This document shows positions 5,301-41,978 of a DNA stretch of 64,000 nucleotides, one piece after another (the first letter of the stretch is position 1; each line of letters starts with the position of its first letter). The position numbers and the translations under genes are program-made. The notes beneath the pieces are model-generated. The model saw only the letters and a list, made by a program, of their open reading frames with translations, was not told the DNA's origin and did not search any database. The DNA lies in contig CASFRS010000020.1 in assembly GCA_949297125.1 (NCBI GenBank), positions 84,817 through 148,816 of the forward strand, written 5' to 3'. The DNA comes from an uncultured Bacteroidales bacterium. Lineage in GTDB: Bacteria > Bacteroidota > Bacteroidia > Bacteroidales > G3-4614.

Positions 5301-5309
5301 AAAGGTAAT

Positions 5310-5777: not shown

Positions 5778-5806
5778 AAAACAATCAAAACCAAAAAGTA
5801 AACAAT

Positions 5807-6775: not shown

Positions 6776-6803
6776 CAGGAACTGTTTCGACGTAAGGCAT
6801 AAA

Positions 6804-6862: not shown

Positions 6863-6880
6863 GTATCATTATACCCGTTG

Positions 6881-11365: not shown

Positions 11366-11396
11366 ACCAACCAAACTACAAATTTATGATATTTGC

Positions 11397-11404
11397 CAAA
11401 AATA
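11397..11404 (-). promoter_or_regulatory. -7 promoter box TATTTTTG (minus strand) for tamB
   Basis: The reverse complement of CAAAAATA matches TAnnTTTG, ~30 nt upstream of the tamB ATG. Confidence 0.4.
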
Positions 11405-11773
11405 ACATATCCGGTTATTCAAAAAATGAGAGTCCGGGTTTTGCCGTATTCCCGGCGCAGCGGGTCAAAGGCGAACCGGCGCGTATCTGAAAGTACAACC
11501 GCCGCGGCGCATATTCCATTATATCGCCACTTGCCCGCTGCAGAAAACCGGCAAAGAGGTCGCGGGCAGGGCTGCATGGTAATCCTGTCAGTCCGTAAAA
11601 CAGGCAATCGGCACTTATCCGTACAGGGGCAACGTGTCATTCCTGTTACCAGTTATATGCGGTTTCGGGAAGGATTGGAACAAGGGGCGGGGCTGTTTTT
11701 TTGCATTGTAGACAGGGTCAGGCTTTTTTTACGATAAAACAGGCCGAACTCCGGCTATTAGGAAAAATATTAA

Positions 11774-11781
11774 TACCTTTG
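11774..11781 (+). promoter_or_regulatory. -7 promoter box TACCTTTG upstream of tsaD
   Basis: Exact TAnnTTTG, 137 nt upstream of the ATG at 11918. Confidence 0.35.
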
Positions 11782-11917
11782 CCATAAAATGGCGGAGAGA
11801 ATGCAAACGAGAGCATAAAACCGCACCTTTTTGGTTTCCGTCCTCCCTGTCGGCATTCTCTTTGTCGGACGGTTAAAGAAGAAAAGTTATAAAAGCGATT
11901 TAATTCTGTAATAGAAA

Positions 11918-12946: not shown

Positions 12947-12957
12947 AATTTTTCAAT

Positions 12958-14199: not shown

Positions 14200-14202
14200 A
14201 AT

Positions 14203-24471: not shown

Positions 24472-24813
24472 TCAGTTGGCTTCGTCTGTTGCTGCGGGCA
24501 GAACGGGTACATTCTGGTTCTGCTGCATGTCGGGCATTGCCGGAATCTCTTTCTTAATCATATCCTGTATCTCCGACTTGTTGCCTGCATTGCGGGTTAT
24601 AAATGCTGCGGAAACGATGCTTAAAACAACTATCGTCCCTGCGAGACTCCATGTGGCTTTCTCAAGGAAATCGGTGGTTTTGCGTACACCCATTATCTGG
24701 TTCGACGAAGAGAAGCCGGCGGCCAAGCCTCCGCCTTTGGAATTTTGTACTAAAACTATAAGAATCAAAAAGATTGCGGCCAGTACAATTAAAATGGTGA
24801 TGAATAACGACAT
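24472..24813 (-). CDS. secG: Preprotein translocase subunit SecG
   Basis: MSLFITILIVLAAIFLILIVLVQNSKGGGLAAGF is canonical SecG. Confidence 0.9.
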   Translation of the reverse strand: MSLFITILIVLAAIFLILIVLVQNSKGGGLAAGFSSSNQIMGVRKTTDFLEKATWSLAGTIVVLSIVSAAFITRNAGNKSEIQDMIKKEIPAMPDMQQNQNVPVLPAATDEAN

Positions 24814-24814
24814 A

Positions 24815-25534
24815 TTACTCTGTTTTTATATTATCTGTTAATTTTTTCAAGAATCTGATTTGGTCTGCAAAGTAAATATTTTTTTCCGGATAAATCAAAC
24901 TTAATTTGTTTATAATTTCCAGAGCCCTGTCGTAACGTCGCTGCTTTATATATATTTTGGCAAGGCTTTCGGTGTAAAACTCCTCTTCGATAACACATCT
25001 TTCATCGTCATCCATGCCGGATTCACCGCAATCGGCAATCTCCTCTTCTTCGATTGCTGCGTAGCATGCATTTTTCAGATCGCCGCTTTTTACCGCTTCC
25101 AGAAAAGAATCTATCGAACTTATTTGAGAAGAGCCACCGTCGCTGCACTCCGTGGCGGTAAAGTCGCTTTCGGCGAAGTAGTCGCCAGCCGGTGCGCCCG
25201 AACGGATTATATCGTCGATGCTCAGGTCCTGACTGTCTCCCGCTGCCGAAATAAAATCGTCAATTCTCGAAAAGTCCGACTTGTCTTGCCCGTTTTCGTG
25301 TGTGTCTGCGGTAACAGCATGTGTTTCAGACTGCGGTCCGGCACAGCCGCCCTCCGCCTTGCCTGTCTCCTTTACATTGCGCATAAGCATGGAGAGTTTA
25401 CGCAGTTCCTTTGATATGGCCGACCTGTTCCCTTTTCCGTGCATCTCCAGAGCCGACAAAATACCCCCATTTCCCCCCGGTTTCCCGACAGGTTTCTTTT
25501 TATTGGCGTCCGTTTCTCTTTCAGTTACCCCCAT
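24815..25534 (-). CDS. Hypothetical acidic protein with a TPR-like C-terminal motif
   Basis: 239-aa ORF packed tightly between lptE and secG. C-terminus FYTESLAKIYIKQRRYDRALEIINKLSLIYPEKNIYF. No enzymatic motif seen. Confidence 0.5.
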   Translation of the reverse strand: MGVTERETDANKKKPVGKPGGNGGILSALEMHGKGNRSAISKELRKLSMLMRNVKETGKAEGGCAGPQSETHAVTADTHENGQDKSDFSRIDDFISAAGDSQDLSIDDIIRSGAPAGDYFAESDFTATECSDGGSSQISSIDSFLEAVKSGDLKNACYAAIEEEEIADCGESGMDDDERCVIEEEFYTESLAKIYIKQRRYDRALEIINKLSLIYPEKNIYFADQIRFLKKLTDNIKTE

Positions 25535-25539
25535 AAAGG

Positions 25540-26055
25540 TTACCAGTTCGCTACTGTGGCATTGAATATCAATTCGGCCAGTTCGGCACTTATCTCCGAA
25601 ATCAACTCATCCTGTACCTGGTTTAGCATAAGGGAACTGTCGAAATCCCTGTATGCGCTGAAAGTCTGGTCTATATTGAATTTCGGGTTTTTGGTATCGG
25701 TATATTTTACCCTTACGGTAATGGTCAGCCGCGTTTGGGAGGCATATGCATCCGCCTTGACCGCCTGCGGCGACAGCGAATATCCCGTTATTTCCCCTTC
25801 AACCTGCAAATCGCCGTTGCGCGGAACGATGCTGAGACGAGTCTGTCTTGTATAAATATCCTGCAACGCATTGTTGAATACGGCAGCCAGCGGAGGATAT
25901 ACAAGCGAGGCCCTGATGGGGAAGTTGGCTATCGAAATGGTTTTAGTAACGTTGTAGTCGATAGAAGCCCCGTTGAACTTGTACGATATGGTACAAGACA
26001 ATATTATGACCGACAGTACCGATGTCAGGAGTATAATACCCGTTTTCCGTATCAT
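25540..26055 (-). CDS. lptE: LptE-like LPS-assembly lipoprotein
   Basis: Lipobox VIILSC, ~170 aa, beta-rich. Sits in the conserved position between the sigma-54 activator and secG. Confidence 0.6.
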   Translation of the reverse strand: MIRKTGIILLTSVLSVIILSCTISYKFNGASIDYNVTKTISIANFPIRASLVYPPLAAVFNNALQDIYTRQTRLSIVPRNGDLQVEGEITGYSLSPQAVKADAYASQTRLTITVRVKYTDTKNPKFNIDQTFSAYRDFDSSLMLNQVQDELISEISAELAELIFNATVANW

Positions 26056-27251
26056 TATTCCAAGTTGTATTCCTTTATTTTCCTGTATAATGTGCGTTCC
26101 GAGATTTTAAGTTCCTCGGCGCATTTTTTCCGTTTGCCGTTATTGCGTTCCAGGGCCTTGCGAATCATGTCCTTCTCGGCCTCTTCAAGCGATACGGCAT
26201 TCGGCTCGATGCTTTCGGCATGAACCGTTTCTATATTGTCGAACTGTTCCGTAGGTTTGCGGACTACGGTAGGGAGCGTGTGCTGTCTGGAATCCTGCTC
26301 GATGATTTGCGGGATATGCTCCTTGCGTCCCGATTCCCGAATCGAACTCTTAAGTTCGTCAAGTTCCTTACGCATGTCCAGTATTATTTTATAGAGCATT
26401 TCCTTTTCCGACTGCAACATGATATTGTCCCTGTTCAACGCAGGAAGATTGGGTTCGTCAATTCTCGGCAGATATGAACGCAAGATGTCGGCCGTAACTT
26501 CCCTCGATGTCTCGAATATGGAAATCTGTTCCGTAACGTTTCTCAACTGCCTGATATTCCCCGGCCAACTGTAGGACGTCATCAGTTCTTTTGCATCTTC
26601 GGAGAGCTGAATGGCCGGCATGCGGTATTTTTCGGCGAAGTCCGACGAGAATTTCCTGAAAAGAAGCAGAATATCGTTTTTTCTTTCTCTCAATGGGGGG
26701 AGTTCTATCCTTACGGTGTTCAACCTGTAAAAGAGGTCTTCCCTGAATTTCCCTTCGGCAACGGCCTTCTCCATGTCCAGGTTTGTAGCGGCAACTATCC
26801 TGACATCGGTTTTCTGAACCTTCGACGAACCTACCTTTATGAATTCCCCGTTTTCCAGAACCCTTAGCAGCCTTGCCTGCGTGGTCATGGGAAGTTCCCC
26901 GACTTCGTCGAGGAAAATAGTCCCTCCGTTTCCCTCCTCGAAATACCCTTTACGGTCGGCAAGAGCGCCGGTAAAAGCACCCTTTTCATGGCCGAAAAGT
27001 TCCGAGTCGATAGTCCCTTCCGGAATGGCGCCGCAGTTTACTGCAATATATTTGTTGTGTTTCCTGAGGCTGTTTGCGTGTATTATCTGCGGGAAAAACT
27101 CCTTGCCCGTCCCGCTCTCTCCGGTAATAAGGACCGAAATATCGAACGGGGCTATCTGCATGGCGCGGGTTATGGCTCTCGTCAACGACGGGGTATTCCC
27201 TATTATGCCGAACCTTTGCTTCGTGTTTATAATATCAGTATCCGTTATCAT
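26055..27251 (-). CDS. Sigma-54-dependent transcriptional activator (AAA+ plus Fis-type HTH, no N-terminal sensory domain)
   Basis: Walker A GESGTGKE starts ~aa 44. GAFTGA loop (EKGAFTGA). C-terminal HTH ELKISERTLYRKIKEY. The stop overlaps the lptE ATG (TAATG). Confidence 0.9.
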   Translation of the reverse strand: MITDTDIINTKQRFGIIGNTPSLTRAITRAMQIAPFDISVLITGESGTGKEFFPQIIHANSLRKHNKYIAVNCGAIPEGTIDSELFGHEKGAFTGALADRKGYFEEGNGGTIFLDEVGELPMTTQARLLRVLENGEFIKVGSSKVQKTDVRIVAATNLDMEKAVAEGKFREDLFYRLNTVRIELPPLRERKNDILLLFRKFSSDFAEKYRMPAIQLSEDAKELMTSYSWPGNIRQLRNVTEQISIFETSREVTADILRSYLPRIDEPNLPALNRDNIMLQSEKEMLYKIILDMRKELDELKSSIRESGRKEHIPQIIEQDSRQHTLPTVVRKPTEQFDNIETVHAESIEPNAVSLEEAEKDMIRKALERNNGKRKKCAEELKISERTLYRKIKEYNLE

Positions 27252-27740
27252 GTGTCATGTATAAGACTTGAACATGCAAAAGGTGTAAAATACATGCATC
27301 CCTTGCAGCACATGCTTTTGCCCGCCTTTAACCTGCAGGGCGCGATTCCCTTCCCGGGCAAAAATAACGCAAACGAGGGCAGAAACAAACCGCGAGGTTT
27401 TGTTATGCCGAGTGCCGCTTGTTTTCGCCGTTTTACGGCAAAGATACCCCCCCGGCCGGGAGATAGCGGAAGGAATCATGTATTTGAACACAAAGTTAGA
27501 AAAAAAAATGCAATCCCGACAGTTGCCGTATATTAAAAGATCCAACTGTAAAAGGCGGCGGTTTCCGGCGGGCAATATATCTTCATAACGTTATGGGGAA
27601 AGCAAGTTTGCCGAGTGCGGGCGACAAGCCGAAATATTTATGAATCAGCCTCCGGCAGAAGAATCGACGCCTTGCGGGGGATTAGGCGTATAAATAAAAA
27701 TGTTTTGTAAAAAAATTATATGCCATTGAAAAAAAATATG

Positions 27741-27748
27741 TAATTTTG
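27741..27748 (+). promoter_or_regulatory. -7 promoter box TAATTTTG upstream of the DUF3575 locus
   Basis: Exact TAnnTTTG in an AT-rich stretch ~100 nt upstream of the ATG at 27850. Confidence 0.45.
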
Positions 27749-27849
27749 CGCTCGAATGTGTATTCTCTCTTGGAAAGTTTATGGACTTGATTTAAAAGAG
27801 GAAAAAGGATACGGTACATTCACGAGGCCTTAACAAATTAATTGAAGTG

Positions 27850-28428
27850 ATGAATCAAAGCATTAAAATCCCGATAAATACTGCAGCGATAAAAAAATAT
27901 CGGGTTTTGTTAATGATATTGTTCTGTTGTATCTCTTATTCATCTTATTCGCAAAAGATAGCGTTGAAGACGAATGCCGTGTTGTGGGCAACCGTATCGC
28001 CCAACCTGTCGGCCGAGTTTGTCGTTTCGCCGAACATGTCGGTCGATTTGTCGGCATCGTTCAATGTCTGGTCTCCGTATTCAGGCATCAAAACCGATCA
28101 CGTCTCGGTTTCTCCCGAGTTCCGTTATTGGTTCGGGCGTCCGATGGCGCAACATTTCCTCGGTGTTACTCTGTTGTACATGAATTACGATATGGGGTAT
28201 AAGGGGACGTTGTACGACGGTCAGGCCTTGGGCGGAGGTATAACCTACGGTTACGATTTCGTACTTGGAAAACATTGGAATCTGGAACTTACGGCCGGGG
28301 TCGGTGCGATGTTCCATTGGCAGTACCGCTATAAGGAAGAAGCACCCCGTCCGGCAGACTACAACAGTTTCGGGTGGAATGCGGTACCTGTAAAACTGGG
28401 TGTGAACATATCATATGTAATCTTCTAA
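27850..28428 (+). CDS. DUF3575 family outer-membrane beta-barrel protein
   Basis: Signal peptide followed by ALKTNAVLWATVSPNLSAEFVVSPNMSVDLSASFNVWSP, which matches the DUF3575 N-terminal signature. C-terminal ...NISYVIF. Confidence 0.8.
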   Translation: MNQSIKIPINTAAIKKYRVLLMILFCCISYSSYSQKIALKTNAVLWATVSPNLSAEFVVSPNMSVDLSASFNVWSPYSGIKTDHVSVSPEFRYWFGRPMAQHFLGVTLLYMNYDMGYKGTLYDGQALGGGITYGYDFVLGKHWNLELTAGVGAMFHWQYRYKEEAPRPADYNSFGWNAVPVKLGVNISYVIF

Positions 28429-28441
28429 AAAAGCGTTGTAA

Positions 28442-30445
28442 ATGAAACTTTCAATAAAGATATTGATGTCGCTTGCATTTGCATTGGCAATGCTGCCGGC
28501 AATATCGAATGCCCAAAACATACGTGTAACCGGAGTTGTGCGTGGGAACAACGGCGAGCGGATTCCCGGAGCAACGATAAAGGATTTGGGAAACCAGAGA
28601 GTTGTAGGGACTACCGACGATGACGGAAGATACTCCTTGATAATATCGCCGAATGCGACGGTTGAGTTCTCGTGTATGGGATACTCGTCCGAGAAGGAAA
28701 AGATAAAAGGACGCCTGACTATAGACGTGGAGTTGCAGACTACCGCCAATGAAATGGAGGAGATAGTCGTAACGGCCAACCTTGTGGGGACCATAATATT
28801 CGAACCGTCGGAAATAGAGGTAGTGGGAAACTATTTCCATCTGCGTACCAGATTCAAGGTCCCGTCGGCCATCATGTCGAGCGACAAGAGACTTGTTGTC
28901 CAACCTACCATATACAACGTTACCCGCAGGAAAACATTCTTCCTCCGTCCGGTAGTGTCAGACGGCCGCGAATATTTATTGACGCAAGACAGGATGTACG
29001 GTTTCGATTTGAGCCGCGATACCCTCTCCCCCTATATCCAGAAGAGCCAGATGTCCCGTCAGGGAGAGATAATAGCGTATCACGATTCGGCGTATATTGA
29101 AAACAACCGCGACGATTACCGTGCAGATGTTTTCATGTCGATAGAGGACTACAAAAAGATTATAAACGTAGATACCATATCTATAGCTCACGGAACCGTG
29201 AACCCGTTGCGGTTTTTCGATTACAACCTCGGGGCCCGCGACTTGACCGATTCGGCATATATCCCCAAACCGGAATTGCAGCTGAGGAACGATAAGGGGG
29301 AAGTAAACCTTACGTACCTGCCCGGTAAAGCCCAAATAGACGAGAGCGACCCTGAGAACGTAAGACAGCTTGAGATGCTCGGCAAAAGAATAACCTCGCT
29401 CGAGTCGAACCCCGATGCACGCCTCGAATCGGTTGCCATCAGCGGAGTTTCGTCCCCTGACGGGCGTTATGCGAGCAACGTGGTGCTGGCCAAGGAGCGT
29501 ATGGCGACAGCACGCGACAGGATACTTTCCTATGTAAGTCCCGAGCGCAGGGAGTTTCTTTCGGTAGTGTCCGATTCAAAAGTGGAAAACTGGGAACCCG
29601 TATACGAGATGATGGTAAGGGACTCGCTTACCGATAAAGCCGCCGAGGTGCGGGCCATAATAAACCGTTACCCCGACAGCCCCGACAGGCAGTTCTTGGC
29701 TATCAGCCGCCTGCCGTATTACAGAAGCCTCATAGTACCGAAGTATCTGCCGGAACTCAGGCGCGTCGAATACAACTTCGGGTACTCCATATACAGGGTC
29801 CTGACAGATGATGAGATTGAAGAACTGTACAAAAAGGACTATTCGTCGTTCTCCCGTTACGAGTTTTACCGCATGTTCATGCGGGCAAAGGACGACGTTG
29901 AGCGTGAAACCCTTTACAAGCAGGCTTTGGAAATGTACCCGAGGTTTATGCTTGCGGCCAACAACCTTGCGGCCTTGTATATAAGGCAAGGGCGTTCCGA
30001 CGAGAATCTTCTCAAGCCGTTCATAAACGAAAATGCTCCCGAAGAGGTCCTCTCCAATCAGATAGTGGCATACCTCGACCGCTGGAAATACGACAGCGCC
30101 GATTCGGTGGCGATGCTCATGAAAGAGACGGAGACGTCGGAATACATAAGGTCGGTAACGGATGCCTTGAACGGAAACTATGAAGAGGCACTGCAGACTT
30201 TCGGGGCGCAGGGCGGCATAAACGAGATTGTGCTGCTTTTGGCAATGAAGCGCAATGACGAAGCATGGGAGAAGGCCGAAGAGCTCCCCGACGAATCGGC
30301 AAGGGTAATGTACGTGAAAGCAATAATCGCAAACAGGCTCGACAAGGTCGTAGAGGCCATAAACTATATAGAAACGGCATTGGAAATGGATCCGTCATTG
30401 CGTGAAATAGCTGAAATAGATGCCGATGTAAAAGATTTGTTATAG
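28442..30445 (+). CDS. Secreted multidomain protein: CarboxypepD_reg-like N-domain, DUF3868-like core with an OmpA-like remnant motif, and C-terminal TPR repeats
   Basis: Signal peptide ...LPAISNAQN. IRVTGVVRGNNGERIPGATIKD...GRYSLIISPNATVEFSCMGY is a SusC-type N-extension. RLVVQPTIYNVTRRKTFFLRPVVSDGREY and ISGVSSPDGRYASNVVLAKERMATARDRI are DUF3868/OmpA-like. The tail is TPR-like. Confidence 0.6.
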   Translation: MKLSIKILMSLAFALAMLPAISNAQNIRVTGVVRGNNGERIPGATIKDLGNQRVVGTTDDDGRYSLIISPNATVEFSCMGYSSEKEKIKGRLTIDVELQTTANEMEEIVVTANLVGTIIFEPSEIEVVGNYFHLRTRFKVPSAIMSSDKRLVVQPTIYNVTRRKTFFLRPVVSDGREYLLTQDRMYGFDLSRDTLSPYIQKSQMSRQGEIIAYHDSAYIENNRDDYRADVFMSIEDYKKIINVDTISIAHGTVNPLRFFDYNLGARDLTDSAYIPKPELQLRNDKGEVNLTYLPGKAQIDESDPENVRQLEMLGKRITSLESNPDARLESVAISGVSSPDGRYASNVVLAKERMATARDRILSYVSPERREFLSVVSDSKVENWEPVYEMMVRDSLTDKAAEVRAIINRYPDSPDRQFLAISRLPYYRSLIVPKYLPELRRVEYNFGYSIYRVLTDDEIEELYKKDYSSFSRYEFYRMFMRAKDDVERETLYKQALEMYPRFMLAANNLAALYIRQGRSDENLLKPFINENAPEEVLSNQIVAYLDRWKYDSADSVAMLMKETETSEYIRSVTDALNGNYEEALQTFGAQGGINEIVLLLAMKRNDEAWEKAEELPDESARVMYVKAIIANRLDKVVEAINYIETALEMDPSLREIAEIDADVKDLL

Positions 30446-30449
30446 AGAG

Positions 30450-33329
30450 ATGAAGAATAGATATAAAAAAACCGGAATGATAAACACAAAACGGATATCG
30501 GCATATATCCTGTTCGTATGTTTTGCCGTATCCGGAGCAACCGCCCAGTTCAATGCTCTCGACTATCGTTTGCAGAAACGTCCGAGATTGGAAAAATTCG
30601 ACTCGGATAATTTCTTCGACAATACTTTCGTAAGCGGATCATTCGGTGTGCAGTTCAATACATCGGGCAACAAGGCGGCAAGAGATGCCGGGCCGGTAGC
30701 GCGTTACTACTTCGGCAAATGGTTTACCCCTGTCATAGGTGCCCGTTTCGGTTTGGACATGTCGATATTGAGTAACGAAGGGTACAGCACCCATGCACTG
30801 TTCGGTTTCAATCTCGATTATCTGGCAAACATAAGTGCGTTTGTTGCCGGATATGACCCAGACAGGCTCTTTGACCTGTACGGTTTCGTAGGCGCAACCT
30901 ACAAGCGTTCTTTCCGGTACGGATACGGGACCAATCTGTTTGGCGGCTCTTTCGGACTGCAGGGTAATTTCAATATCAACAGGCTGATAAGCGTATATCT
31001 GGAACCGCGTGTTACAATAGCAAATGACGGCTACAACGAACGCTACGTAGAGCGCAAGTTCGATGTACTGCCCGAAGTCTCCGTCGGCCTTGCCTACAAG
31101 ATGCAGCCCCTGCCGCGCACGTACGTAACCAAAGCGGAGAAGACGACCTTTAAGGAGAACATCTTTTTCTCGTTTGGAGCAGGTATACAGCGTCCCCTTT
31201 CAAATATGGCGCCCATATATGCAAATGAAATAAAACTCGGCCCGGCAGGAATGATTGCATTCGGAGGCTGGTTCAAGCACGTGCATGGTGTCAGACTTTC
31301 CGCATACGCAGGTTATGCCGATTATTCCGGCGAAAATCTGGTGAGCGACAACAAACTGGGTTCAGCCATATTGCGTGCCGACTATATGATAAATTACAGC
31401 AATGTGTTCGGCGGATATGACGAGGGCCGGCTCTTCGACCTGATAGGGACGTTCGGTCCCGAACTGGCTTTCTCCGGACAGACCGGAACGAAATGGAAAA
31501 TGTCGGCAGGTTTGGGTATCGGGTTGCAGGGCAACTTCAGGATAACCCCGGCGCTGGATATATTCTTAGAGCCGCGTATCTCTTTCTATACCACCAACTA
31601 CACCAACGGGAACATAAACCGTTACGACTCGAACGCATCCTTGCTTATGGGTCTGACCTATCACAGTGTGGCAAAGGAGTACAGGAAAGACAATGACGAA
31701 TTTGAGAAGAAATCGGTTGCGGACCGGATGTTCGTCTCCATATCGGCCGGTGCAGGAGCCAGATTCTCCCGTATAAAAGAAAACCTCAACGGAGGGAACA
31801 ACCTTGCCGGGAAAGTAACCATCGGGCTCGGCACCTGGTTTACTCCGGTATCCGGTATCCAGATTACGGGGGGGACGCTGCTGTACGGGACCAATTACGA
31901 CTATGGTGCGTATTACCGGGCGAGAAACCTGTTGCTGGGAGTGGATTACCTCTTCAACATGACAAATGCCGTACGCGGATACAAGGATGACCGCTTCTTT
32001 GAGTTGATAGCTGCCGGAGGAATAGGCGTAATGTATAATCACAGCATATTCCGCCCCGTGCTGCAAACTTCGATGAAAGCGAACTTCAACCTGAAAAAGA
32101 ACTGGAGCGTATTCGTAGAGCCTCAGGCATTGTGGGCAATGCAGCGGGGTATCCTGACGGGTTCGGTATCGACACGAAAGTCGGTCATGTTGACGGGAAG
32201 TATAGGAACATCGTACAGTATGCGCGGATACGACCCTGTTTCGCTCTACGCATATAAGGAAGGGGAAGGCTCCAACATGTTTTTCTCCATTGCCGGAGGA
32301 TTCGGCGGGATAATCGATAACGGGATGTTCAGCAATCTGAAGGAGAAGATTTCCCCTGCCGGACGCCTGTCGTTAGGAAACTGGGTTACGCCCCTTGCCG
32401 GTTGGCGTTTGAGTTTCATGAGCGAACGGATAAAGCAGACCCGTACGGAAAACTACATAACGCATGGAGGAATAGGCGGGGAGTTTATGCTCAACCTCAC
32501 CAATGCGGCAATAGGTTATAACCCCGACAGGTTCTTCAACATGTATGCAATGGCCGGTGTGCATGCCGGGTTCTCCATTGTAGACCACAGCATGCGTTTC
32601 ATCCCCGGTTTTACCGGAGGTGTGCAGGCTTCATTCAAGGTAGCTCCCAGTTTCAGCCTTTTCCTCGAACCCCAGCTTGCGATATATCTGAATAAGTTCG
32701 ACGGGGAGAACCGGCAGAAATCGGTAGGGATGATATATGCCGGTCTGACCTACTCCATAAACAAGCGGGACAGGTATGCAAAAGAGATAGATGCACGCCT
32801 CGATAAGCCCAATTTCATCTCTGTCGGTGGCGGGATAGGGTTGTGGGGAAACACCCTTATGTCGTCGTTCGGAGGTTTCAAGGACAAACTTGTCTATTCG
32901 GCCGATATGGCATACGGACGCTGGATAACGCCGGTGCACGGTTTCAGGTTGAATGCCGAATATACCAGAATATACAAGCCGTACCAGTATGTAGGGGAAA
33001 AGATAGATATGATATCGGGTCGGGCCGACTACATGTTGAACCTTACCAATATGTTTGCCGGCAACAACGACAGCCGTCTGTTCGAGGCAATAGCATTCGT
33101 CGGGGCAGGTGCCGTTGCGCCAGTAAAGAAGAGCGACGATTACCGCGACCTCAAGGTTACGTATACGGCGGCGTTCGGCCTTCAGGCAAAATTCAACCTG
33201 TCCGACAGGTTCGATATATTCATCGAGCCTAAGGGAACATTCTACGGAGATGCCGTGGACGGGTATTCCTCAAGGGCGAAATTCGATGCTACGGCATCGG
33301 TCCTTGCAGGTTTCAACTGCAAGTTCTGA
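30450..33329 (+). CDS. Secreted 959-aa protein composed of five tandem 8-strand beta-barrel-like (OMP_b-brl-type) modules
   Basis: Signal peptide KRISAYILFVCFAVSGATAQ. Five colinear repeats share the W.TP..G.R, DY..N.(S/T)N...GY...R.F and GLQ..F......(I/V/L)(F/Y)(L/V/I)EP motifs. The protein ends ...GFNCKF, a C-terminal Phe. Confidence 0.6.
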   Translation: MKNRYKKTGMINTKRISAYILFVCFAVSGATAQFNALDYRLQKRPRLEKFDSDNFFDNTFVSGSFGVQFNTSGNKAARDAGPVARYYFGKWFTPVIGARFGLDMSILSNEGYSTHALFGFNLDYLANISAFVAGYDPDRLFDLYGFVGATYKRSFRYGYGTNLFGGSFGLQGNFNINRLISVYLEPRVTIANDGYNERYVERKFDVLPEVSVGLAYKMQPLPRTYVTKAEKTTFKENIFFSFGAGIQRPLSNMAPIYANEIKLGPAGMIAFGGWFKHVHGVRLSAYAGYADYSGENLVSDNKLGSAILRADYMINYSNVFGGYDEGRLFDLIGTFGPELAFSGQTGTKWKMSAGLGIGLQGNFRITPALDIFLEPRISFYTTNYTNGNINRYDSNASLLMGLTYHSVAKEYRKDNDEFEKKSVADRMFVSISAGAGARFSRIKENLNGGNNLAGKVTIGLGTWFTPVSGIQITGGTLLYGTNYDYGAYYRARNLLLGVDYLFNMTNAVRGYKDDRFFELIAAGGIGVMYNHSIFRPVLQTSMKANFNLKKNWSVFVEPQALWAMQRGILTGSVSTRKSVMLTGSIGTSYSMRGYDPVSLYAYKEGEGSNMFFSIAGGFGGIIDNGMFSNLKEKISPAGRLSLGNWVTPLAGWRLSFMSERIKQTRTENYITHGGIGGEFMLNLTNAAIGYNPDRFFNMYAMAGVHAGFSIVDHSMRFIPGFTGGVQASFKVAPSFSLFLEPQLAIYLNKFDGENRQKSVGMIYAGLTYSINKRDRYAKEIDARLDKPNFISVGGGIGLWGNTLMSSFGGFKDKLVYSADMAYGRWITPVHGFRLNAEYTRIYKPYQYVGEKIDMISGRADYMLNLTNMFAGNNDSRLFEAIAFVGAGAVAPVKKSDDYRDLKVTYTAAFGLQAKFNLSDRFDIFIEPKGTFYGDAVDGYSSRAKFDATASVLAGFNCKF
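30621..33326 (+). repeat. Five tandem protein-level repeats (~500-550 nt period) inside the 959-aa ORF
   Basis: Repeat units at about 30621-31100, 31158-31664, 31725-32219, 32274-32759 and 32811-33326, each carrying the same ordered motif set. Confidence 0.8.
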
Positions 33330-33389
33330 CAACATAAACAATCGCCTGCATTCCCGGAAATCAGGAAGAGGGTGCGTGTTATATAAGAA

Positions 33390-33435
33390 GCGTTGCCCGC
33401 ATGTGAAAATTTCTCGCATGCGGGCAACGCTTTTT
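33390..33435 (+). terminator. Rho-independent terminator of the DUF3575 three-gene locus
   Basis: GCGTTGCCCGCATG (33390-33403) pairs perfectly with CATGCGGGCAACGC (33417-33430), followed by TTTTT. Confidence 0.85.
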
Positions 33436-33538: not shown

Positions 33539-33754
33539 ATGAAACGGATATTGGCCCCGGTATTCGATTTTTATATCGAAGGGTTCAGAAGCATGACGAC
33601 AGGTAAAATATTATGGACTATAATCCTTGTGAAACTGGCTATAATGTTTTTTATAATCTGGCCTGTCTGTAATGCCGGTGTACCTCCCGGACGGCGGACG
33701 GCAGAGGGAAATTCCGTGCAGATATATGAAGAACTGGTAGAAAGATGCAGATAA
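33539..33754 (+). CDS. DUF4492 small membrane protein (precedes cydA in Bacteroidetes)
   Basis: MKRILAPVFDFYIEGFRSMTTGKILWTIILVKLAIMFFII. Ends 5 nt upstream of cydA. Confidence 0.75.
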   Translation: MKRILAPVFDFYIEGFRSMTTGKILWTIILVKLAIMFFIIWPVCNAGVPPGRRTAEGNSVQIYEELVERCR

Positions 33755-33758
33755 GATT

Positions 33759-35333
33759 ATGAGCGATTTATTCCCGTTAGTAGATATGTCGCGGGCGCAG
33801 TTTGCACTAACTGCATTGTACCACTGGCTGTTTGTCCCGCTGACATTGGGCCTCTCCCTTATAATAGCCATAATGGAGACCATATATTACCGTACAGGCA
33901 ACGAAGAGTGGAAGAGAACAGAGAAGTTCTGGATGACGCTGTTCGGTATAAATTTTGCAATCGGCGTCGCTACCGGGATAATCCTTGAATTCCAGTTCGG
34001 TACGAACTGGTCCAATTACAGCTGGTTCGTGGGCGACATATTCGGTGCCCCGCTTGCCATAGAGGGCATAATGGCCTTCTTTATGGAATCCACTTTTATA
34101 GCCATAATGTTTTTCGGCTGGGACAAGGTAGGCAGGAGGACGCATCTTGCGGCAACGTGGCTTACCTGCATAGGCGCATCCCTCTCCGCATTGTGGATAC
34201 TCGTGGCAAACGCATGGATGCAGTATCCTGCCGGGATGTATTTCAACCCCGATACTGTAAGGAATGAAATGTACAGCTTTGCCGATGTAGTGTTTTCCCC
34301 GGTTGCAATCAACAAGTTCTTCCACTCGGTAACGTCCGGCTGGGTATTGGCTTCCATATTCGTATTGTCCGTATCGGCGTGGTACCTTATAAAAAAGCGG
34401 GAAACGGAACTGGCCCTGCGCAGTTCCAGGCTTGCCGCCCTTGTAGGGCTTGCCGGAATATGTATAGTCTTTTATACCGGCGACGGGTCGGCAAAACAGG
34501 TAGCGCAGAAACAACCCATGAAACTTGCGGCAATGGAAGGAATATACGACGGTAAAAGAGGGCAGGGGCTTATCGCATTCGGCATATTGAATCCTGACAA
34601 GACCTTCTTGAACGATTCTCTGCCGACATTCCTTTTCAAGATAGAAATACCCCGGTTGCTGTCATACCTTGCCACCGGTTCGTCCGGCGGGTTTGTCCCT
34701 GGAATCAACAATATAATAGAAGGCGGATATAAGGCTCGCAATCCGTTTACGGGCGATACTGTAACGGCCCTTTCGGCGGCCGAACGGATAAAAACGGGCA
34801 AAATTGCCGTCCGGGCCTTGCGGGAATACAAAAAGGCCGTGTCGGAAAACGATACTGCGGCCGCGGCCGCAGCAGCTGACAGGCTGCAACGCAACTATAA
34901 CAGTTTCGGATATGCCTACATAACCGATACAGCACAGCTTGTACCCTCCGTGCCGCTTGTATTTTATTCGTTCCATATAATGTTCACATTGGGAATATAC
35001 CTGTTCATCATATTCCTTTCCGTACTCCTTTTCATATACAGGCGCAATTATGTACGCTTAAAACCGCTGCTCTACATTGTTCTCTTTTCGTTGCCGTTAG
35101 GTTATGTTTGTCTTGAAACGGGGTGGATAGTGGCGGAAGTTGGCCGTCAGCCGTGGGTAATACAAGATATCATGCCCACGTATGCGGCAATATCCGATAT
35201 AAACGTAAAAAGCGTAACAGCCACATTCTGGATATTTGCGATATTCTTTACCGTACTGCTGGCGGCCGAAGCAGGAATAATGCTGAACCAGATAAAAAAG
35301 GGCCCTGCCCGAAAAACCGGAAACCATGATTGA
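33759..35333 (+). CDS. cydA: Cytochrome bd ubiquinol oxidase subunit I
   Basis: LSRAQFALTALYHWLFVPLTLG and EFQFGTNW. 524 aa with multiple TM helices. Confidence 0.95.
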   Translation: MSDLFPLVDMSRAQFALTALYHWLFVPLTLGLSLIIAIMETIYYRTGNEEWKRTEKFWMTLFGINFAIGVATGIILEFQFGTNWSNYSWFVGDIFGAPLAIEGIMAFFMESTFIAIMFFGWDKVGRRTHLAATWLTCIGASLSALWILVANAWMQYPAGMYFNPDTVRNEMYSFADVVFSPVAINKFFHSVTSGWVLASIFVLSVSAWYLIKKRETELALRSSRLAALVGLAGICIVFYTGDGSAKQVAQKQPMKLAAMEGIYDGKRGQGLIAFGILNPDKTFLNDSLPTFLFKIEIPRLLSYLATGSSGGFVPGINNIIEGGYKARNPFTGDTVTALSAAERIKTGKIAVRALREYKKAVSENDTAAAAAAADRLQRNYNSFGYAYITDTAQLVPSVPLVFYSFHIMFTLGIYLFIIFLSVLLFIYRRNYVRLKPLLYIVLFSLPLGYVCLETGWIVAEVGRQPWVIQDIMPTYAAISDINVKSVTATFWIFAIFFTVLLAAEAGIMLNQIKKGPARKTGNHD

Positions 35334-36477
35334 CTCCATTTCCTTCTACCAGCATTACTGGTGGTTTATAATTTCGTTGCTGGCTTCGCTGCTGGTATTT
35401 CTGCTGTTCGTACAAGGAGGGCAGACGCTTGTAAGAGAGTTGGGGCGTACCGATACGGAGCGTTCCATGATAATAAGCTCTCTGGGACGTAAATGGGAAC
35501 TGACATTTACCACCCTTGTCGTATTCGGCGGTGCATTCTTTGCCTCCTTCCCGCTTTTCTATTCCACCAGTTTCGGCGGTGCATACTGGCTGTGGATGAC
35601 AATGCTTTTCAGTTTCATATTGCAGGCCGTATCGTACGAGTTCCGTTCCCGCAAGGGGAACCTGCTGGGTACGGGGGTATACGACATGTTCCTGTATGTA
35701 AACGGGTTTGTCGGTACTTTCCTGCTCGGGGTTGCCGTAGCCTCATTTTTTACAGGAAACGACTTCTGTATAAACCGCAACAATATCATGCAGCAGAATG
35801 CTCCGGTAATATCGGTGTGGCAGAATCCGCTGCACGGGCTGGAGTCCATAATATCCCCGCTTAACGCCATTGCGGGTTTTACGGTTTTTTTCCTTTCCCG
35901 GATAGAGGCATCGCTCTACTTTGCGGCCAACATCGGTTCACCCGCTATCCGTTCGCGTATAAACACGCAATTGTATCGCGACGGTCTGCCGTTTCTTTTG
36001 TTTTTCATAATGTTCGTTGTTGCGGTGTTTACAAAAGATGGTTGCAGAACCGATCCGTACAGCGGAGTACAGACATTGGAAAAATTCAGGTATCTGAAAA
36101 ACATGCTGGAAATGCCGTGGAATCTGTGCCTGTTTTCATTCGGGACGGTATCGGTAATATTGTCCGTAATACTGACCCTGTCAGTCCCTCGCTTCAAACG
36201 GGGAATCTGGCTGTGCGGTGCCGGGACGCTGGCAGTGGTTTTGTCGCTGATGTTTGCGGCGGGGTATAACAACACCCCATATTACCCCTCCTCTGCCGAT
36301 ATACAGTCATCGCTGACCATTTATAACAGTTCTTCCAGCCTTTTTACGCTGAAAGTAATGAGTGCGGTATCATTACTGATACCGGTAGTGGCGGCATATA
36401 TATTTGCCGCGTGGAAAGCCATGGATAAGAGCCCTATTACCGAACAGGAGATAAAACAGGGAGAAGACGGATACTGA
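35326..36477 (+). CDS. cydB: Cytochrome bd ubiquinol oxidase subunit II
   Basis: Overlaps the cydA stop. 383-aa polytopic membrane protein with a CydB-like N-terminus YQHYWWFIISLL. Confidence 0.9.
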   Translation: MIDSISFYQHYWWFIISLLASLLVFLLFVQGGQTLVRELGRTDTERSMIISSLGRKWELTFTTLVVFGGAFFASFPLFYSTSFGGAYWLWMTMLFSFILQAVSYEFRSRKGNLLGTGVYDMFLYVNGFVGTFLLGVAVASFFTGNDFCINRNNIMQQNAPVISVWQNPLHGLESIISPLNAIAGFTVFFLSRIEASLYFAANIGSPAIRSRINTQLYRDGLPFLLFFIMFVVAVFTKDGCRTDPYSGVQTLEKFRYLKNMLEMPWNLCLFSFGTVSVILSVILTLSVPRFKRGIWLCGAGTLAVVLSLMFAAGYNNTPYYPSSADIQSSLTIYNSSSSLFTLKVMSAVSLLIPVVAAYIFAAWKAMDKSPITEQEIKQGEDGY

Positions 36478-36519: not shown

Positions 36520-37143
36520 TCAGAATTTTACTCTGACGCCGGCAATAGCACTTCCGGCATTGCCTATTCCGGCTTCCATGAAGAATGCAGTTTTCTTGCC
36601 GACTTCAATGCCTATCGGCGAGAACTGGTATGCAAGCATGAAATCGGTATTGCATTTCCTTTCCGTAAGACCTGGGGTGCTGCCGGTATGTACGGCGTTG
36701 TAAAAATCGATACAAAGGCCTACCCCTACGGTGGTGTACAGCGTAAACTTTTCTTTCTCAATCCAGTTGAGTTTTACTTTGGGCATTATGCTCAAAAAGT
36801 TGTTGCATTCATTTTCTACAAAAGTATTGTTGTAGTTGAATGTAACATCCTTTTTGGAATAGGCATATATCACGCCTACGCCCAAACCTATCCTTTTGTT
36901 GAGCCTGAAGTTGTAATCGAGGTTTACTGCGCCGTAATGCGAACTGTTGGAGCGGTTGAGCGATTTGAAGTCGTCAGGATAATCAACTGCGTTGGTAAAT
37001 GCTCCGGCCCACTCCGAAACAGGCATTACGCCGTATCCTATCGAAAACTCATGGCGGTCAATATTCTTGTCCCGCGTTTTTGCGGCAGCACCCTGGCATA
37101 ACAGCAGTGCGACAACCGCCGATAACAGGAAATATCTGTTCAT
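36520..37143 (-). CDS. Small outer-membrane beta-barrel protein (porin-family / OmpW-like)
   Basis: Signal peptide MNRYFLLSAVVALLLCQGAAA, alternating beta-strand pattern, C-terminal ...GVRVKF. Confidence 0.7.
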   Translation of the reverse strand: MNRYFLLSAVVALLLCQGAAAKTRDKNIDRHEFSIGYGVMPVSEWAGAFTNAVDYPDDFKSLNRSNSSHYGAVNLDYNFRLNKRIGLGVGVIYAYSKKDVTFNYNNTFVENECNNFLSIMPKVKLNWIEKEKFTLYTTVGVGLCIDFYNAVHTGSTPGLTERKCNTDFMLAYQFSPIGIEVGKKTAFFMEAGIGNAGSAIAGVRVKF

Positions 37144-37509: not shown

Positions 37510-37920
37510 ATGCTCGATAAAGTAAAGCTCATATCTCTTCCCAAAGTAGAAGATTCCCGCGGGAACCTCTCCGTAATAGAAGAGAACATAAACGTGCCGT
37601 TTGCCATAAAAAGGGCATACTGGATATACGACGTACCCGGCGGGCAGAAGCGTTTCGGGCATGCCTTCAAGAAACAGCACGAGTTTATAGTAGCCCTTTC
37701 CGGCAGTTTCGACGTGATACTCAACGACGGGACGGAAGAAAAGGTGTATCCTCTCAACCGTTCCTATTACGGTATATACATACCCAACCTTATATGGCGC
37801 CGCATAGAGAATTTTTCCACAAACTCTGTGGCCATGGTGTTGTCATCGTCAAGATACGATGAAAGCGATTATATGGAAGATTACGGCGAATATGTAGAAT
37901 ACCTTAAAAATCAAGAATGA
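37510..37920 (+). CDS. WxcM/FdtA-like cupin (sugar 3,4-ketoisomerase family), divergent copy
   Basis: DSRGNLSVIE...PFAIKRAYWIYDVPGGQKRFGHAFKKQ...GSFDV fits the FdtA pattern, but GHAF replaces GHAH. Confidence 0.8.
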   Translation: MLDKVKLISLPKVEDSRGNLSVIEENINVPFAIKRAYWIYDVPGGQKRFGHAFKKQHEFIVALSGSFDVILNDGTEEKVYPLNRSYYGIYIPNLIWRRIENFSTNSVAMVLSSSRYDESDYMEDYGEYVEYLKNQE

Positions 37921-38357
37921 AAACCTGTACACCCATATACGGAGTAGATGACTGTCGGCTGATAACGCTCGACAAGCATCACCACCCTAACGGCAATCTC
38001 TCGGTAGTGGAGGGGAACGCCGATGTCCCGTTCGATATCAGACGAGTGTATTACATCTATGACGTACCCGGCGGGGAAGACCGCGGAGGGCATGCGCACA
38101 AGAACCTGTCGCAACTGATAGTCTCCGTCAGCGGCAGTTTCGATGTAACGCTCGACGACGGTAAGGAGCGCAGGAAAATAGTACTGAACCGTCCCTATAT
38201 GGGGCTTCTTGTCCGTCCCGGGATATGGCGCGAGTTGAATAACTTTTCATCCGGAGCGGTAACGCTTGTACTTGCATCGGAACTTTTCGACGAGGAAGAT
38301 TATATCCGCAACTATGCCGATTTCAAGGACTTCCGTAAAAAGGGAGGCGGAGGGTAG
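37917..38357 (+). CDS. WxcM/FdtA-like cupin (sugar 3,4-ketoisomerase family), canonical His pair
   Basis: NGNLSVVE...PFDIRRVYYIYDVPGGEDRGGHAHKNLSQL...GSFDVTLDDG. The ATG overlaps the upstream stop (ATGA). Confidence 0.85.
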   Translation: MKTCTPIYGVDDCRLITLDKHHHPNGNLSVVEGNADVPFDIRRVYYIYDVPGGEDRGGHAHKNLSQLIVSVSGSFDVTLDDGKERRKIVLNRPYMGLLVRPGIWRELNNFSSGAVTLVLASELFDEEDYIRNYADFKDFRKKGGGG

Positions 38358-39992: not shown

Positions 39993-41978
39993 TCAGTTTG
40001 TAAAGTCCACGCACACGCCAAACTGGAACGAACCCGGGTTAAGCGGGTAATGCGGCATGGAAAAGTATCTGTTCCCGCCGAACAGCCCTTTGTTGAAATG
40101 CGAGTACATTACATAAAACCTGACCATTTTCAGTTTCATGTTGGCGTAAACGTTCATATAGGGGTAGTTCCCTACCTTGTATTCATCCTGTACGTGGAAA
40201 GAGAGCGTGGCCGGATTATATACCTCGCCGTAATATGCGGTATTGTACCGGCAGTCTACGCCTATCTGCGTATGCAGGACCTTTGCTATTTTGAACAGCA
40301 GATAAAAATTCCCGTAAGCCGAAAGTGCGGGTAGCGGTATAACCGACTGGTTGCTCGAAGCCTGGTATATAGCCTCCAGATCGAGATGGACTATGCTCAC
40401 TTTCAGTCTCTGTTTCAAGGTTGCGGAAAATATCTGTATATTCCCGCTTTCCTGTTGCGGCAGGGACTGCTTGTTGAAATAAACATGGTTCTGGACATTC
40501 TCGAAACCGACATTCAGATACGTTCCCCACGAAGGAATTTCAACCTCTCCGCCCACTCTGAACTTGCGTATCTTGCCGAAATCGTTATTCCATGTGTAAT
40601 GGTTGGAGACATACCGGCGATAATAAAATGCAGGTTCGAGATTCTTGAAAAAGCCGTATGCGCCGATACGCATGGAATCTTTCATGAAAGCGAATTTCGT
40701 CTGCATCCGTCCGTCTATGTCGAACGAACCGAGTTCCGGCCCGGTAAGACCTATTTTCCCGTTTACGTCATAAGTAATCAGCGCACCCTGACGTTTCGAT
40801 ATGTTACCGCCTACCCAGACGACGTTTTCGGTAAACACCTGCGGGTTCCTTACGGAACTGTATCCGTAGCTCTGGTTCGGCAGCAGGGGTATGGCAGGTT
40901 GTTTCAGAATATCGTTCGACACCGGCGAGGCCATTATGTTGAACCTCCTTATTTCATACGTGGCAAAGGCCGAGATACCCATTTTCGCGCGTTTGTTGAA
41001 CCCCTCGTGGAGCGACACCCCGACGGTATTGCTCAACGACCAGTACGATGTCGTATCGTTGGTCGAAGTCTTGTTTATGTATGCGTTCTGGAAATTCCTC
41101 ACATTCTCGGCCGAATCGGTATCAATGAATCTGCGGAAGTTCCTGTTATACTCGACCGTATGGATAAAGCTCATGACCGGAACGTATTCTTCAACCTCAA
41201 CGGTATCGTTTATGACCTTTGTCCGGTAGTGCCCCCATTTGTAGCGGTGCGAGGCATAATAGGTCGCGCCTTTGACACGGTTGAACGCATTGTTGAAATT
41301 GACAGGGATTGACTTTGAATCCACCCCTCCCGTACCGTTGTATACGTCGTCGGGAGTAAGGATAAAGGCATCGTCCGATATGCCGCCGTTTTCCTGGCAT
41401 GCAATATTGTAGGTGTTGAGCATTACATTAAGTTCGTACTTGTCCCCCTTGTAGTTGCTCGATAGCTGCCAGTTCAGGTTTTTTGAAACCTGGTGGTCGT
41501 AATATCCTCTGGAATACAGGTATTCAATGTTCGCCCCGAACCCCAGTTTCCTGTTCACGTTCCCCGAGAAGGCCGCTTTCAGGTCGTCGTTCCTGTTTTC
41601 GCTGCTTGCCCCCGACATGTATGAAAGCAGAGTCATGGGGATACGGGTATTGTAGTACGTATAAGACGACGGAGTAACTATATAGTGGGCGAACGGCTGT
41701 TTGAATATAAACTGGGGGGCGTCCTCGCGCATGAAAAATATCCTGGAATAACCCGCCCCTCCAAGGTTTCCGGTAAAGGCGTAATGCTCGTCGAAACTTA
41801 TCGGCTGGCCAGTCTGGTAGAAATTGAGGTGCAAAGTATCAATCGGCACCCTGTACCGGGTACCGAGAGGTTGAGAAAGCCGCCACGCATAAGGTTCGCC
41901 TACCTGCGTACGTTTCTTTGCGGAGATGAAAGGCACGTTAAGCGCCGTCAAAAAAAGGAGAATCCACCACCTCTTCAT
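39993..41978 (-). CDS. Putative porin (large Bacteroidetes outer-membrane beta-barrel family)
   Basis: Signal peptide MKRWWILLFLTALNVPFISA. 661 aa, aromatic- and glycine-rich beta pattern, ending ...FGVCVDFTN. Confidence 0.6.
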   Translation of the reverse strand: MKRWWILLFLTALNVPFISAKKRTQVGEPYAWRLSQPLGTRYRVPIDTLHLNFYQTGQPISFDEHYAFTGNLGGAGYSRIFFMREDAPQFIFKQPFAHYIVTPSSYTYYNTRIPMTLLSYMSGASSENRNDDLKAAFSGNVNRKLGFGANIEYLYSRGYYDHQVSKNLNWQLSSNYKGDKYELNVMLNTYNIACQENGGISDDAFILTPDDVYNGTGGVDSKSIPVNFNNAFNRVKGATYYASHRYKWGHYRTKVINDTVEVEEYVPVMSFIHTVEYNRNFRRFIDTDSAENVRNFQNAYINKTSTNDTTSYWSLSNTVGVSLHEGFNKRAKMGISAFATYEIRRFNIMASPVSNDILKQPAIPLLPNQSYGYSSVRNPQVFTENVVWVGGNISKRQGALITYDVNGKIGLTGPELGSFDIDGRMQTKFAFMKDSMRIGAYGFFKNLEPAFYYRRYVSNHYTWNNDFGKIRKFRVGGEVEIPSWGTYLNVGFENVQNHVYFNKQSLPQQESGNIQIFSATLKQRLKVSIVHLDLEAIYQASSNQSVIPLPALSAYGNFYLLFKIAKVLHTQIGVDCRYNTAYYGEVYNPATLSFHVQDEYKVGNYPYMNVYANMKLKMVRFYVMYSHFNKGLFGGNRYFSMPHYPLNPGSFQFGVCVDFTN

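Follow-up and report, generated by a model that had tools for sequence, protein, structure and literature searches.

Our combined findings suggest that three adjacent genes of an uncultured Bacteroidales bacterium encode an OmpA-type link between the outer membrane and the cell wall in which the parts of OmpA are separate and multiplied. The genes, here termed P1, P2 and P3, lie in a stretch of 64,000 nucleotides (positions 84,817 to 148,816 of contig CASFRS010000020.1, assembly GCA_949297125.1), which we refer to as the window. They form a single self-contained operon of gut Bacteroidales whose gene order recurs in about 100 loci representing roughly nine lineages, and they encode an outer-membrane barrel of the DUF3575 family, a periplasmic adaptor of several domains and a chain of five barrels homologous to the barrel of OmpA. 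An earlier note on this DNA, made from the sequence alone, had suggested a complex of a barrel, a peptidoglycan-tethering scaffold and a poly-barrel protein. This remains the best reading of the domain content, from which we tentatively infer that the three products bind one another, that P2 binds peptidoglycan and that together they act as a split, multivalent tether that organizes the outer membrane. The kind of poly-barrel protein to which P3 belongs has been known since 2021, and our search of the open-access literature returned no study of the three-gene operon or of the P2 family. The operon consists of the following elements:

27741-27748, + strand: Bacteroidetes-type -7 promoter box, TAATTTTG, 102 nucleotides (nt) upstream of the P1 ATG
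27850-28428, + strand: P1, outer-membrane beta-barrel protein of the DUF3575 family, 192 amino acids (aa), signal peptide ...SYS|QK, C-terminal Phe; alternative GTG start at 27847
28442-30445, + strand: P2, periplasmic multi-domain adaptor, 667 aa, type I signal peptide ...SNA|QN
30450-33329, + strand: P3, poly-8 multibarrel outer-membrane protein, 959 aa, signal peptide ...ATA|QF, C-terminal Phe
33385-33435, + strand: intrinsic terminator hairpin, with a core G+C-rich stem of 14 bp from 33390 and a T-run at the 3' end

The three open reading frames (ORFs) lie exactly where the earlier note had placed them, on one strand and separated by gaps of only 13 and 4 nt, and its view that they are a single operon is sound, being supported by these short gaps together with a conserved -7 box and a strong terminator. 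With 38 occurrences of the pattern TAnnTTTG expected in the window and 49 found, the motif by itself is not significant. However, the box upstream of P1 is aligned and conserved in seven of eight orthologous upstream regions in which the surrounding DNA is poorly conserved, and for this reason we read it as a promoter. The terminator at 33385-33435 is likewise real, with a folding free energy of -38.7 kcal/mol (z -9.62) that none of 200 shuffled sequences equaled; a consensus terminator scan missed it because the loop of the described stem exceeds the 8-nt limit of the scan. All three products carry signal peptides that are visible by inspection, each with Gln at position +1. We also considered a sigma-54 promoter driven by the activator encoded divergently upstream, and rejected it: no TGGCAC-N5-TTGC-like site is present in 27252-27849, and matches to sigma-54-type promoters across the window are fewer than expected by chance.

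The trio co-occurs across related genomes. A search seeded with P3, using one genome per species, yielded 22 loci, in 19 of which P1, P2 and P3 follow one another in order on one strand; the three exceptions comprise a short contig and relatives with a single barrel that do not belong to the trio, a canonical OmpA among them. A metagenome search seeded with P2 yielded 80 loci, in all of which P2 is preceded by P1 and followed by P3 as far as the contig extends, although these are mostly redundant human-gut contigs from about three identity groups (60%, 45% and 46% to P2) that add depth and little breadth. The same arrangement was found for distant P2 representatives of 26-31% identity (the loci numbered L106 to L113) and in Bacteroides stercoris, whose P2 homologue was seen on more than 1000 contigs. 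Taxa with the trio include Candidatus Caccoplasma, Coprobacter, Muribaculaceae, Mediterranea, Phocaeicola and Bacteroides. Among named genomes, that of Candidatus Caccoplasma merdipullorum is closest to the window (86-89% protein identity). Since the genes flanking the trio are entirely different between lineages, its conservation reflects functional linkage rather than inherited synteny. In the closer comparisons (Caccoplasma, Coprobacter and Muribaculaceae) P2 is the best conserved of the three products and P3 the least (75/61/53% and 56/51/33% for P2/P1/P3), and the low conservation of P3 would fit a protein exposed at the cell surface.

The link to OmpA comes in part from P3, which consists, as the earlier note had recognized, of five barrel modules. 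These modules, of about 180 residues each, are recognizably related in pairwise BLAST comparisons (E 4e-9 to 8e-18, 22-33% identity), and the AlphaFold2 single-chain model of P3 (predicted local distance difference test, pLDDT, 74) has eight strands in each of them. Their limits, given as envelopes of a module hidden Markov model (HMM), and the position of a leader peptide ahead of them are:

30600-31130, + strand: barrel module 1, residues 51-227, eight strands within 59-217
31137-31694, + strand: barrel module 2, residues 230-415, eight strands within 238-405
31704-32243, + strand: barrel module 3, residues 419-598, eight strands within 427-590
32253-32786, + strand: barrel module 4, residues 602-779, eight strands within 609-770
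32790-33326, + strand: barrel module 5, residues 781-959, eight strands within 788-958
30552-30581, + strand: leader peptide NALDYRLQKR, residues 35-44, a candidate docking motif that follows the signal peptide and precedes the first barrel

No Pfam model matches P3, that of OmpA included, and a fold search with the whole chain returned generic large barrels at poor template modeling (TM) scores, indicating nothing beyond an outer-membrane barrel. The module HMM, however, matched the N-terminal barrel of canonical Bacteroidales OmpA proteins with E-values of 5e-26 and 2e-28, one of these proteins being confirmed by its Pfam OmpA C-terminal domain. Canonical OmpA carries barrel and OmpA_C domain in the same chain, whereas P3 ends at its last strand without an OmpA_C domain. 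With five modules and a C-terminal Phe it is instead a multibarrel protein, that is, one with at least two complete eight-stranded outer-membrane barrels per chain. Such poly-8 multibarrels were described computationally by Solan, Pereira, Lupas, Kolodny and Ben-Tal (PNAS 2021), who reported 28 families, the poly-8 proteins having 2-11 barrels, occurring in Bacteroidetes only and deriving from an OmpA-like single barrel (PMC8346858). Their text proposes adhesion by avidity, contains no mention of DUF3575 or of "genomic context" and discusses an operon for one other family only (PMC8346858). P3 is like these proteins in its tandem eight-stranded barrels within one chain, in their variable copy number (1-7 in the trio family), in its restriction to Bacteroidetes and in its descent from an OmpA-like single barrel. 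It differs in its setting, since every family member detected here is encoded in a constant trio together with a DUF3575 barrel and a periplasmic adaptor.

The best-conserved stretch of the P3 family lies outside the barrels. The leader NALDYRLQKR, which the earlier note had not remarked on, forms invariant columns in P3 alignments and falls in a region predicted to be disordered (residues 31-45, pLDDT below 50). A relaxed form of the motif is present in 47 of 49 P3 family clusters and in seven of nine third-gene products tested from distant loci, and is missing from all three canonical OmpA or stand-alone barrels tested. It has the look of a short docking motif and may serve as one. Barrel number is far less constant: the module HMM counts 3, 4, 5, 6 or 7 modules across 49 P3 relatives, and the third gene has one barrel in locus L110, two in L020, three in L017, L018, L108 and L112, and 4, 5, 6 or 7 elsewhere. 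A close relative with otherwise identical synteny carries a 7-barrel version of 1312 aa (P0134; L025, 10001-13939), which implies a recent gain of two modules. On one contig within the 90%-identity cluster of P3 the gene was called as two products, P0454 and P0458 (361 + 600 aa, summing to 961), so that either this copy is frameshifted or disrupted or the contig is misassembled.

The second part of the link to OmpA is found in P2, whose family comprises 205 clusters at 50% identity (E < 1e-30). The AlphaFold2 single-chain model of P2 has a mean pLDDT of 87.3, and its regions, including a SusC-type N-terminal extension (NTE) and an array of tetratricopeptide repeats (TPR), are:

Residues 1-24: type I signal peptide, by inspection
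28520-28735, + strand: NTE with a CarboxypepD_reg-like Ig fold, residues 27-98
Residues 100-120: flexible linker, pLDDT 58-73, with no secondary structure in its TonB-box-like part
28754-28777, + strand: TonB-box-like motif MEEIVVTA, residues 105-112, within the flexible linker
28802-29311, + strand: beta-sandwich region of unknown function, residues 121-290, model strands 125-288
29312-29596, + strand: divergent OmpA_C-like alpha/beta domain, residues 291-385
Residues 386-484: helical region in the AlphaFold2 model
29894-30421, + strand: TPR array, residues 485-660, model helices 485-659

We read P2 as periplasmic because it has neither a lipobox Cys nor a C-terminal beta-signal. The SusC-style N-domain and the TPR array that the earlier note had described were both recovered, with Pfam matches to CarbopepD_reg_2 (E 6e-11), to TPR_17 (27.2 bits, cut-off 24.4) and to further TPR models, and with Foldseek matches of the TPR region to consensus TPR proteins and a Parabacteroides TPR protein. 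Between these ends no Pfam model reaches its curated threshold. A profile of the beta-sandwich retrieves all P2-like proteins in the fetched loci and nothing else, and relatives of P2 go by the names "carboxypeptidase-like regulatory domain-containing protein" or "hypothetical protein" in the databases, with one UniRef entry named "OmpA f...".

The OmpA-like remnant that had been glimpsed in this core gained support. The assignment of residues 291-385 to OmpA_C is supported by three weak but independent lines. First, Pfam OmpA (PF00691) matches seven of 27 P2 relatives, with E-values down to 9e-5, and the family consensus at E 0.0045. Second, the P2 family profile aligns with solved OmpA C-terminal domains over about 100 residues, nearly the whole domain (E 0.006-0.009). 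Third, in Foldseek the region, modeled with a pLDDT of 82-87 and showing the alpha/beta fold of OmpA_C, matches 4rha (E 1.8e-4, TM 0.66), as well as 5nhx, 4erh and 6top, the last a domain of PorE. Its invariant residues are S338-P339-x-G341 ... N346 .. L349 ... R353, and in an alignment with canonical Bacteroidales OmpA the N, L and R are kept, with Ser at the position of the canonical Asp.

A DUF3868-like core, also claimed for P2, did not survive at the HMMER level. Neither the window protein, nor 27 full-length relatives, nor 10 isolated core regions (searched at E <= 10) matched DUF3868 (PF12984), and the family is absent from the precomputed annotations of 240 listed relatives; the sole trace is a faint match of the family consensus (E 0.12, 12.9 bits against a cut-off of 27). 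In loci L108 and L109 (8001-12449) the P2 homologue is 1482 aa long. About 730 residues without a Pfam match are inserted into its beta-sandwich, which the profile matches in two parts (residues 133-249 and 980-1049), and downstream of it come first a 3-barrel gene and next a MoxR/Bat operon (BatA, VWA, TPR).

As proposed earlier, P1 is a DUF3575 barrel, matching PF12099 over residues 21-191 and model positions 2-177 of 177 (E 1.3e-50; 171.6 bits, cut-off 21.1), with sub-threshold matches to the Autotransporter and OMP_b-brl barrel models. Searches by sequence found no related solved structure. A common family for P1 and the P3 modules was rejected (module HMM on P1, E 0.3; hhalign probability 0.7%), and at the level of sequence the DUF3575 barrels are a family different from those of P3. 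Proteins of the DUF3575 family have been detected in outer-membrane vesicles of Porphyromonas gingivalis (PMC12937337), and no study of their function was found in the open-access literature.

Published work describes the OmpA of Bacteroidota as a protein of eight strands by which the outer membrane is anchored to the cell wall (PMC12611786). In our favored reading, the trio would in effect be an OmpA split into separate and multiplied parts that build an envelope complex between the outer membrane and peptidoglycan. P3 would place a chain of five OmpA-type eight-stranded barrels in the outer membrane, with no peptidoglycan-binding domain of its own, and P2 would supply the missing wall-binding function in trans from the periplasm by means of its divergent OmpA_C-like domain. 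The TPR array and the beta-sandwich of P2 may serve as protein-binding scaffolds, with the conserved disordered leader NALDYxLQKR, at the periplasmic N-terminus of P3, as a candidate ligand. The NTE and the TonB-box-like strand could make a second contact, either with TonB or, through the pairing of strands, with a different partner, and P1 would be a second membrane anchor. Canonical Bacteroidota OmpA (such as the 409-aa protein of locus L021 and Fjoh_0697) thus resembles the trio in its barrel, which is homologous to those of P3 (E 5e-26), in the OmpA_C-like fold found in P2 and in the proposed job of keeping the outer membrane attached to the cell wall. It differs in that the trio has the barrel and the wall-binding domain on separate polypeptides, a barrel multiplied five-fold, a wall-binding domain with Ser for Asp, additional NTE, beta-sandwich and TPR regions, and an unrelated barrel, P1.

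Several observations weigh against this tether. The P2 protein of the window itself scores only 13.3 bits with Pfam OmpA, below the cut-off of 27.2. Across the P2 family, Ser followed by Pro is invariant at the canonical Asp position, which makes the domain a distinct SPxG variant. In OmpA and Pal structures this Asp of the OmpA_C domain contacts peptidoglycan, and because of its replacement by an invariant Ser, peptidoglycan binding by P2 may be altered or lost. The length of P2 is independent of barrel number (660 aa with one barrel, 745 aa with three, 667 aa with five and 666 aa with seven), which argues against a simple scaffold of one TPR per barrel. Both structure predictions cover single chains only. 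The conserved TonB-box-like motif is easier to reconcile with a process that is energized or dynamic than with a static tether. Finally, in two distant loci the trio lies beside genes of type V pili: in L020 it is preceded directly, on the same strand, by three fimbrillin-like (Mfa_like_1) genes, and in L110 its single-barrel form is followed directly by a pilin module, consisting of DUF3575-DUF5119 and a 375-aa gene.

This last point bears on an alternative that we regard as unlikely, namely that the trio works for type V (Fim/Mfa) pili as an accessory or platform module, corresponding to the genes at the head of pilin loci (fimX-pgmA in P. gingivalis) and serving pilins encoded elsewhere in the genome. 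Because of its position beside fimbrillin-like genes in these two lineages, the trio is evolutionarily tied to type V pilus loci. The earlier note's statement that DUF3575 proteins stand at the head of such loci was borne out as well, both by L110 and by L021 (11380-14863), where an N-terminal OmpA-like domain (SPDG) fused to a C-terminal DUF3575 is followed by DUF5119 and Mfa_like_1 lipoproteins, with the 409-aa canonical OmpA gene just upstream. The profile of the P2 OmpA-like domain matches the N-terminal domain of this fusion specifically (40.6 bits; common signature SPDG...N..LA..R), and since the fusion joins DUF3575 to the same SPxG domain, P1 and P2 look like its split form. We tentatively take FimX of P. 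gingivalis to be a DUF3575 protein and PgmA a DUF3868 protein, going by the order of UniProt accessions. In Bacteroides thetaiotaomicron, DUF3868 and DUF3575 genes are neighbors close to an Mfa1-like gene (PMC10434189). However, fimX and pgmA, which lie upstream of fimA, are dispensable for FimA polymerization, PgmA being an outer-membrane protein (PMC3436787).

The gene neighborhoods also speak against a pilus platform. The absence of pilin genes, as claimed earlier, holds for the window and altogether for seven of the roughly nine lineages, and fails only where the trio abuts fimbrillin-like or DUF5119 genes, in L020 and L110. In the window the trio has its own promoter box and terminator, its transcript comprises P1 to P3 only, and the flanks encode a sigma-54 activator, LptE, SecG, DUF4492 and CydAB but no pilin; the pattern of a type V pilus operon, defined by lipoprotein pilin genes (Mfa_like or FimA families) and an Mfa2/FimB-type anchor in one transcript, was recognized only in the two distant loci. 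The head genes of type V pilus loci and the trio share a DUF3575 barrel paired with an SPxG OmpA-like domain (as in L021) and, occasionally, adjacent fimbrillin-like genes, but the trio differs in lacking a pilin, anchor or tip gene in the window and in most lineages, in a P2 without a DUF3868 match and in its added poly-barrel gene. A pilus platform would moreover leave an array of OmpA-type barrels as the third gene unexplained.

A second alternative, which is compatible with the split tether but which we hold to be quite improbable, is that P2 is an energy-coupled adaptor passing force from TonB-ExbBD to a raft of small barrels. Such coupling might serve outer-membrane remodeling, vesicle release or the gating of a partner. 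Its basis is the close resemblance of P2 to SusC. The NTE matches positions 2-85 of the NCBIfam SusC/RagA model (E 1.7e-15) and the SusC NTE structure 9hfj (TM 0.88, root-mean-square deviation 1.2 A, 32% identity), and the P2 family profile matches SusC chains at E 4.6e-19. The alignment of P2 residues 18-112 to the N-terminal part of solved SusC proteins extends through the Ton box, where MEEIVVTA corresponds position for position to VDEVVVTG or LDEVVVV of these homologues; the Ton box of Bt1763 is DEVVVTG (PMC7782687). This motif, overlooked by the earlier note, is conserved as L-[DE]-E-V-x-V-[TV]-[AG] over 122 family representatives, down to about 26% identity and despite lying in a disordered linker, and resembles a short docking motif. 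In SusC the NTE matters for function and has been proposed to contribute to TonB specificity (PMC7782687), but no experiment is known to link it to TonB. The locus encodes no TonB, ExbB or ExbD, the eight-stranded barrels have neither a plug nor a transport lumen, and the motif lies within the Pfam CarbopepD_reg_2 model, such that it could be a structural legacy or pair with a different partner.

P2 is in any case not a SusC/RagA transporter. With TIGR04056 it scores 56.5 bits against a cut-off of 368, only positions 2-85 of 981 being matched. Its signal peptide, Gln at +1, NTE and Ton-box region align with the SusC N-terminus, but the plug and the 22-stranded barrel are replaced by the beta-sandwich, OmpA_C-like and TPR regions. 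The strongest form of the coupling idea, in which a working NTE and TonB box of P2 allow inner-membrane TonB-ExbBD to pull on a barrel raft referenced to peptidoglycan, is in our estimate very unlikely. If true, the envelope would contain a force-transducing machine of a kind other than the TonB-dependent transporters, and poly-8 multibarrels would have a mechanical role, for example in outer-membrane remodeling, vesicle formation or the anchoring of surface appendages.

The least probable of the readings is that P2 is a dedicated barrel-assembly factor, a periplasmic chaperone or a protein docking on the barrel assembly machinery (BAM), outside the final structure: its strict co-occurrence with the barrel gene, the TPR arrays and CarboxypepD_reg-like domains of BAM accessory proteins, weak matches to the BamP model (E 0.048) and to the Flavobacterium johnsoniae BAM chain 9n2d_E (E 1.5e-3), the entry of a BamP loop, following the first domain, into the BamA seam (PMC12611786) and the open question of how multibarrels are inserted (PMC8346858) would fit, but P2 falls far short of BamP (NF053692; 13.1 bits, cut-off 230), is retained where the third gene has one barrel, has no counterpart for canonical OmpA with its same barrel type, and would leave its OmpA_C-like domain and P1 unexplained.

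Among known proteins, PorE of type IX secretion (PG1058) combines similar domain types. It shares carboxypeptidase-regulatory-like, OmpA_C-like and TPR domains with P2, and its C-terminal domain (6top) is among the fold matches noted above. PorE is a lipoprotein with a beta-propeller and has its domains in another order. P2 differs in having neither a lipobox nor a propeller, and no type IX secretion genes are found nearby.

The operon offers the first genomic handle on the purpose of proteins with many barrels in one chain. These were predicted in 2021 without an assigned function or partner, their insertion being an explicit open question (PMC8346858). One multibarrel family is now seen to be encoded always in company, with a DUF3575 barrel and a periplasmic adaptor of about 700 residues, whose domains point to attachment to the cell wall and possibly to TonB. 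The role of multibarrels has thereby become testable, with three named proteins and two short conserved peptides, in culturable hosts of the trio such as Coprobacter fastidiosus, Coprobacter secundus and Bacteroides stercoris. The locus also provides a first structural idea for DUF3575 and its partner domain, which in Bacteroidales of the gut and the mouth stand at the head of type V pilus loci.

Upstream of the operon in the window and divergent from it, within 24472-27251, lie:

26055-27251, - strand: sigma-54 activator without a receiver domain
25540-26055, - strand: LptE
24815-25534, - strand: acidic 239-aa protein, no Pfam match
24472-24813, - strand: SecG

This sigma-54 activator/LptE/SecG cluster adjoins the trio in loci of Caccoplasma and of Coprobacter, whereas in distant lineages the two are not adjacent. 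Downstream (33539-36477, + strand), a gene for a 71-aa membrane peptide (DUF4492) begins about 100 nt past the trio terminator, directly 5' of cydA and cydB, which encode cytochrome bd.

Envelope-biogenesis genes are plentiful elsewhere in the window, all on the - strand (6881-11374, 36520-37143, 39993-41978, 50374-52071 and 53453-55582), and their products are a TamB-like protein (1497 aa) and a small outer-membrane barrel (207 aa), together with a Porin_10 protein (E 2e-194), one resembling OstA_2/LptD_N and a SurA-like double peptidyl-prolyl isomerase. Two tandem FdtA/WxcM-like ORFs at 37510-38357 (+ strand), the first recognized by Pfam scan and the second by sequence similarity, may mark the start of a glycan-biosynthesis cluster.

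The Bacteroidaceae relatives show neighborhoods of their own. In L017, L018 and L112 the trio lies just downstream of sugar-nucleotide or glycosyltransferase genes. Large UvrD-like helicase / PD-(D/E)XK nuclease (AddAB-like) genes adjoin it in L017 (11839-18240), L018 (13009-19208) and L111 (2-2980), probably as a matter of synteny only. In L112, of the Bacteroides stercoris type, a same-strand cluster (5047-14463) downstream of a glycosyltransferase/EpsG block contains genes for a 475-aa coiled-coil protein, a 424-aa canonical OmpA and a 204-aa protein. The same cluster has DUF3575 genes, two in number, as well as genes for a P2-like protein (745 aa), a 3-barrel protein (588 aa) and a 140-aa unknown. 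The 204-aa protein has no Pfam match, its counterpart in L018 being a single OmpA-type barrel, and L017, L018 and L106 likewise have a second DUF3575 gene.

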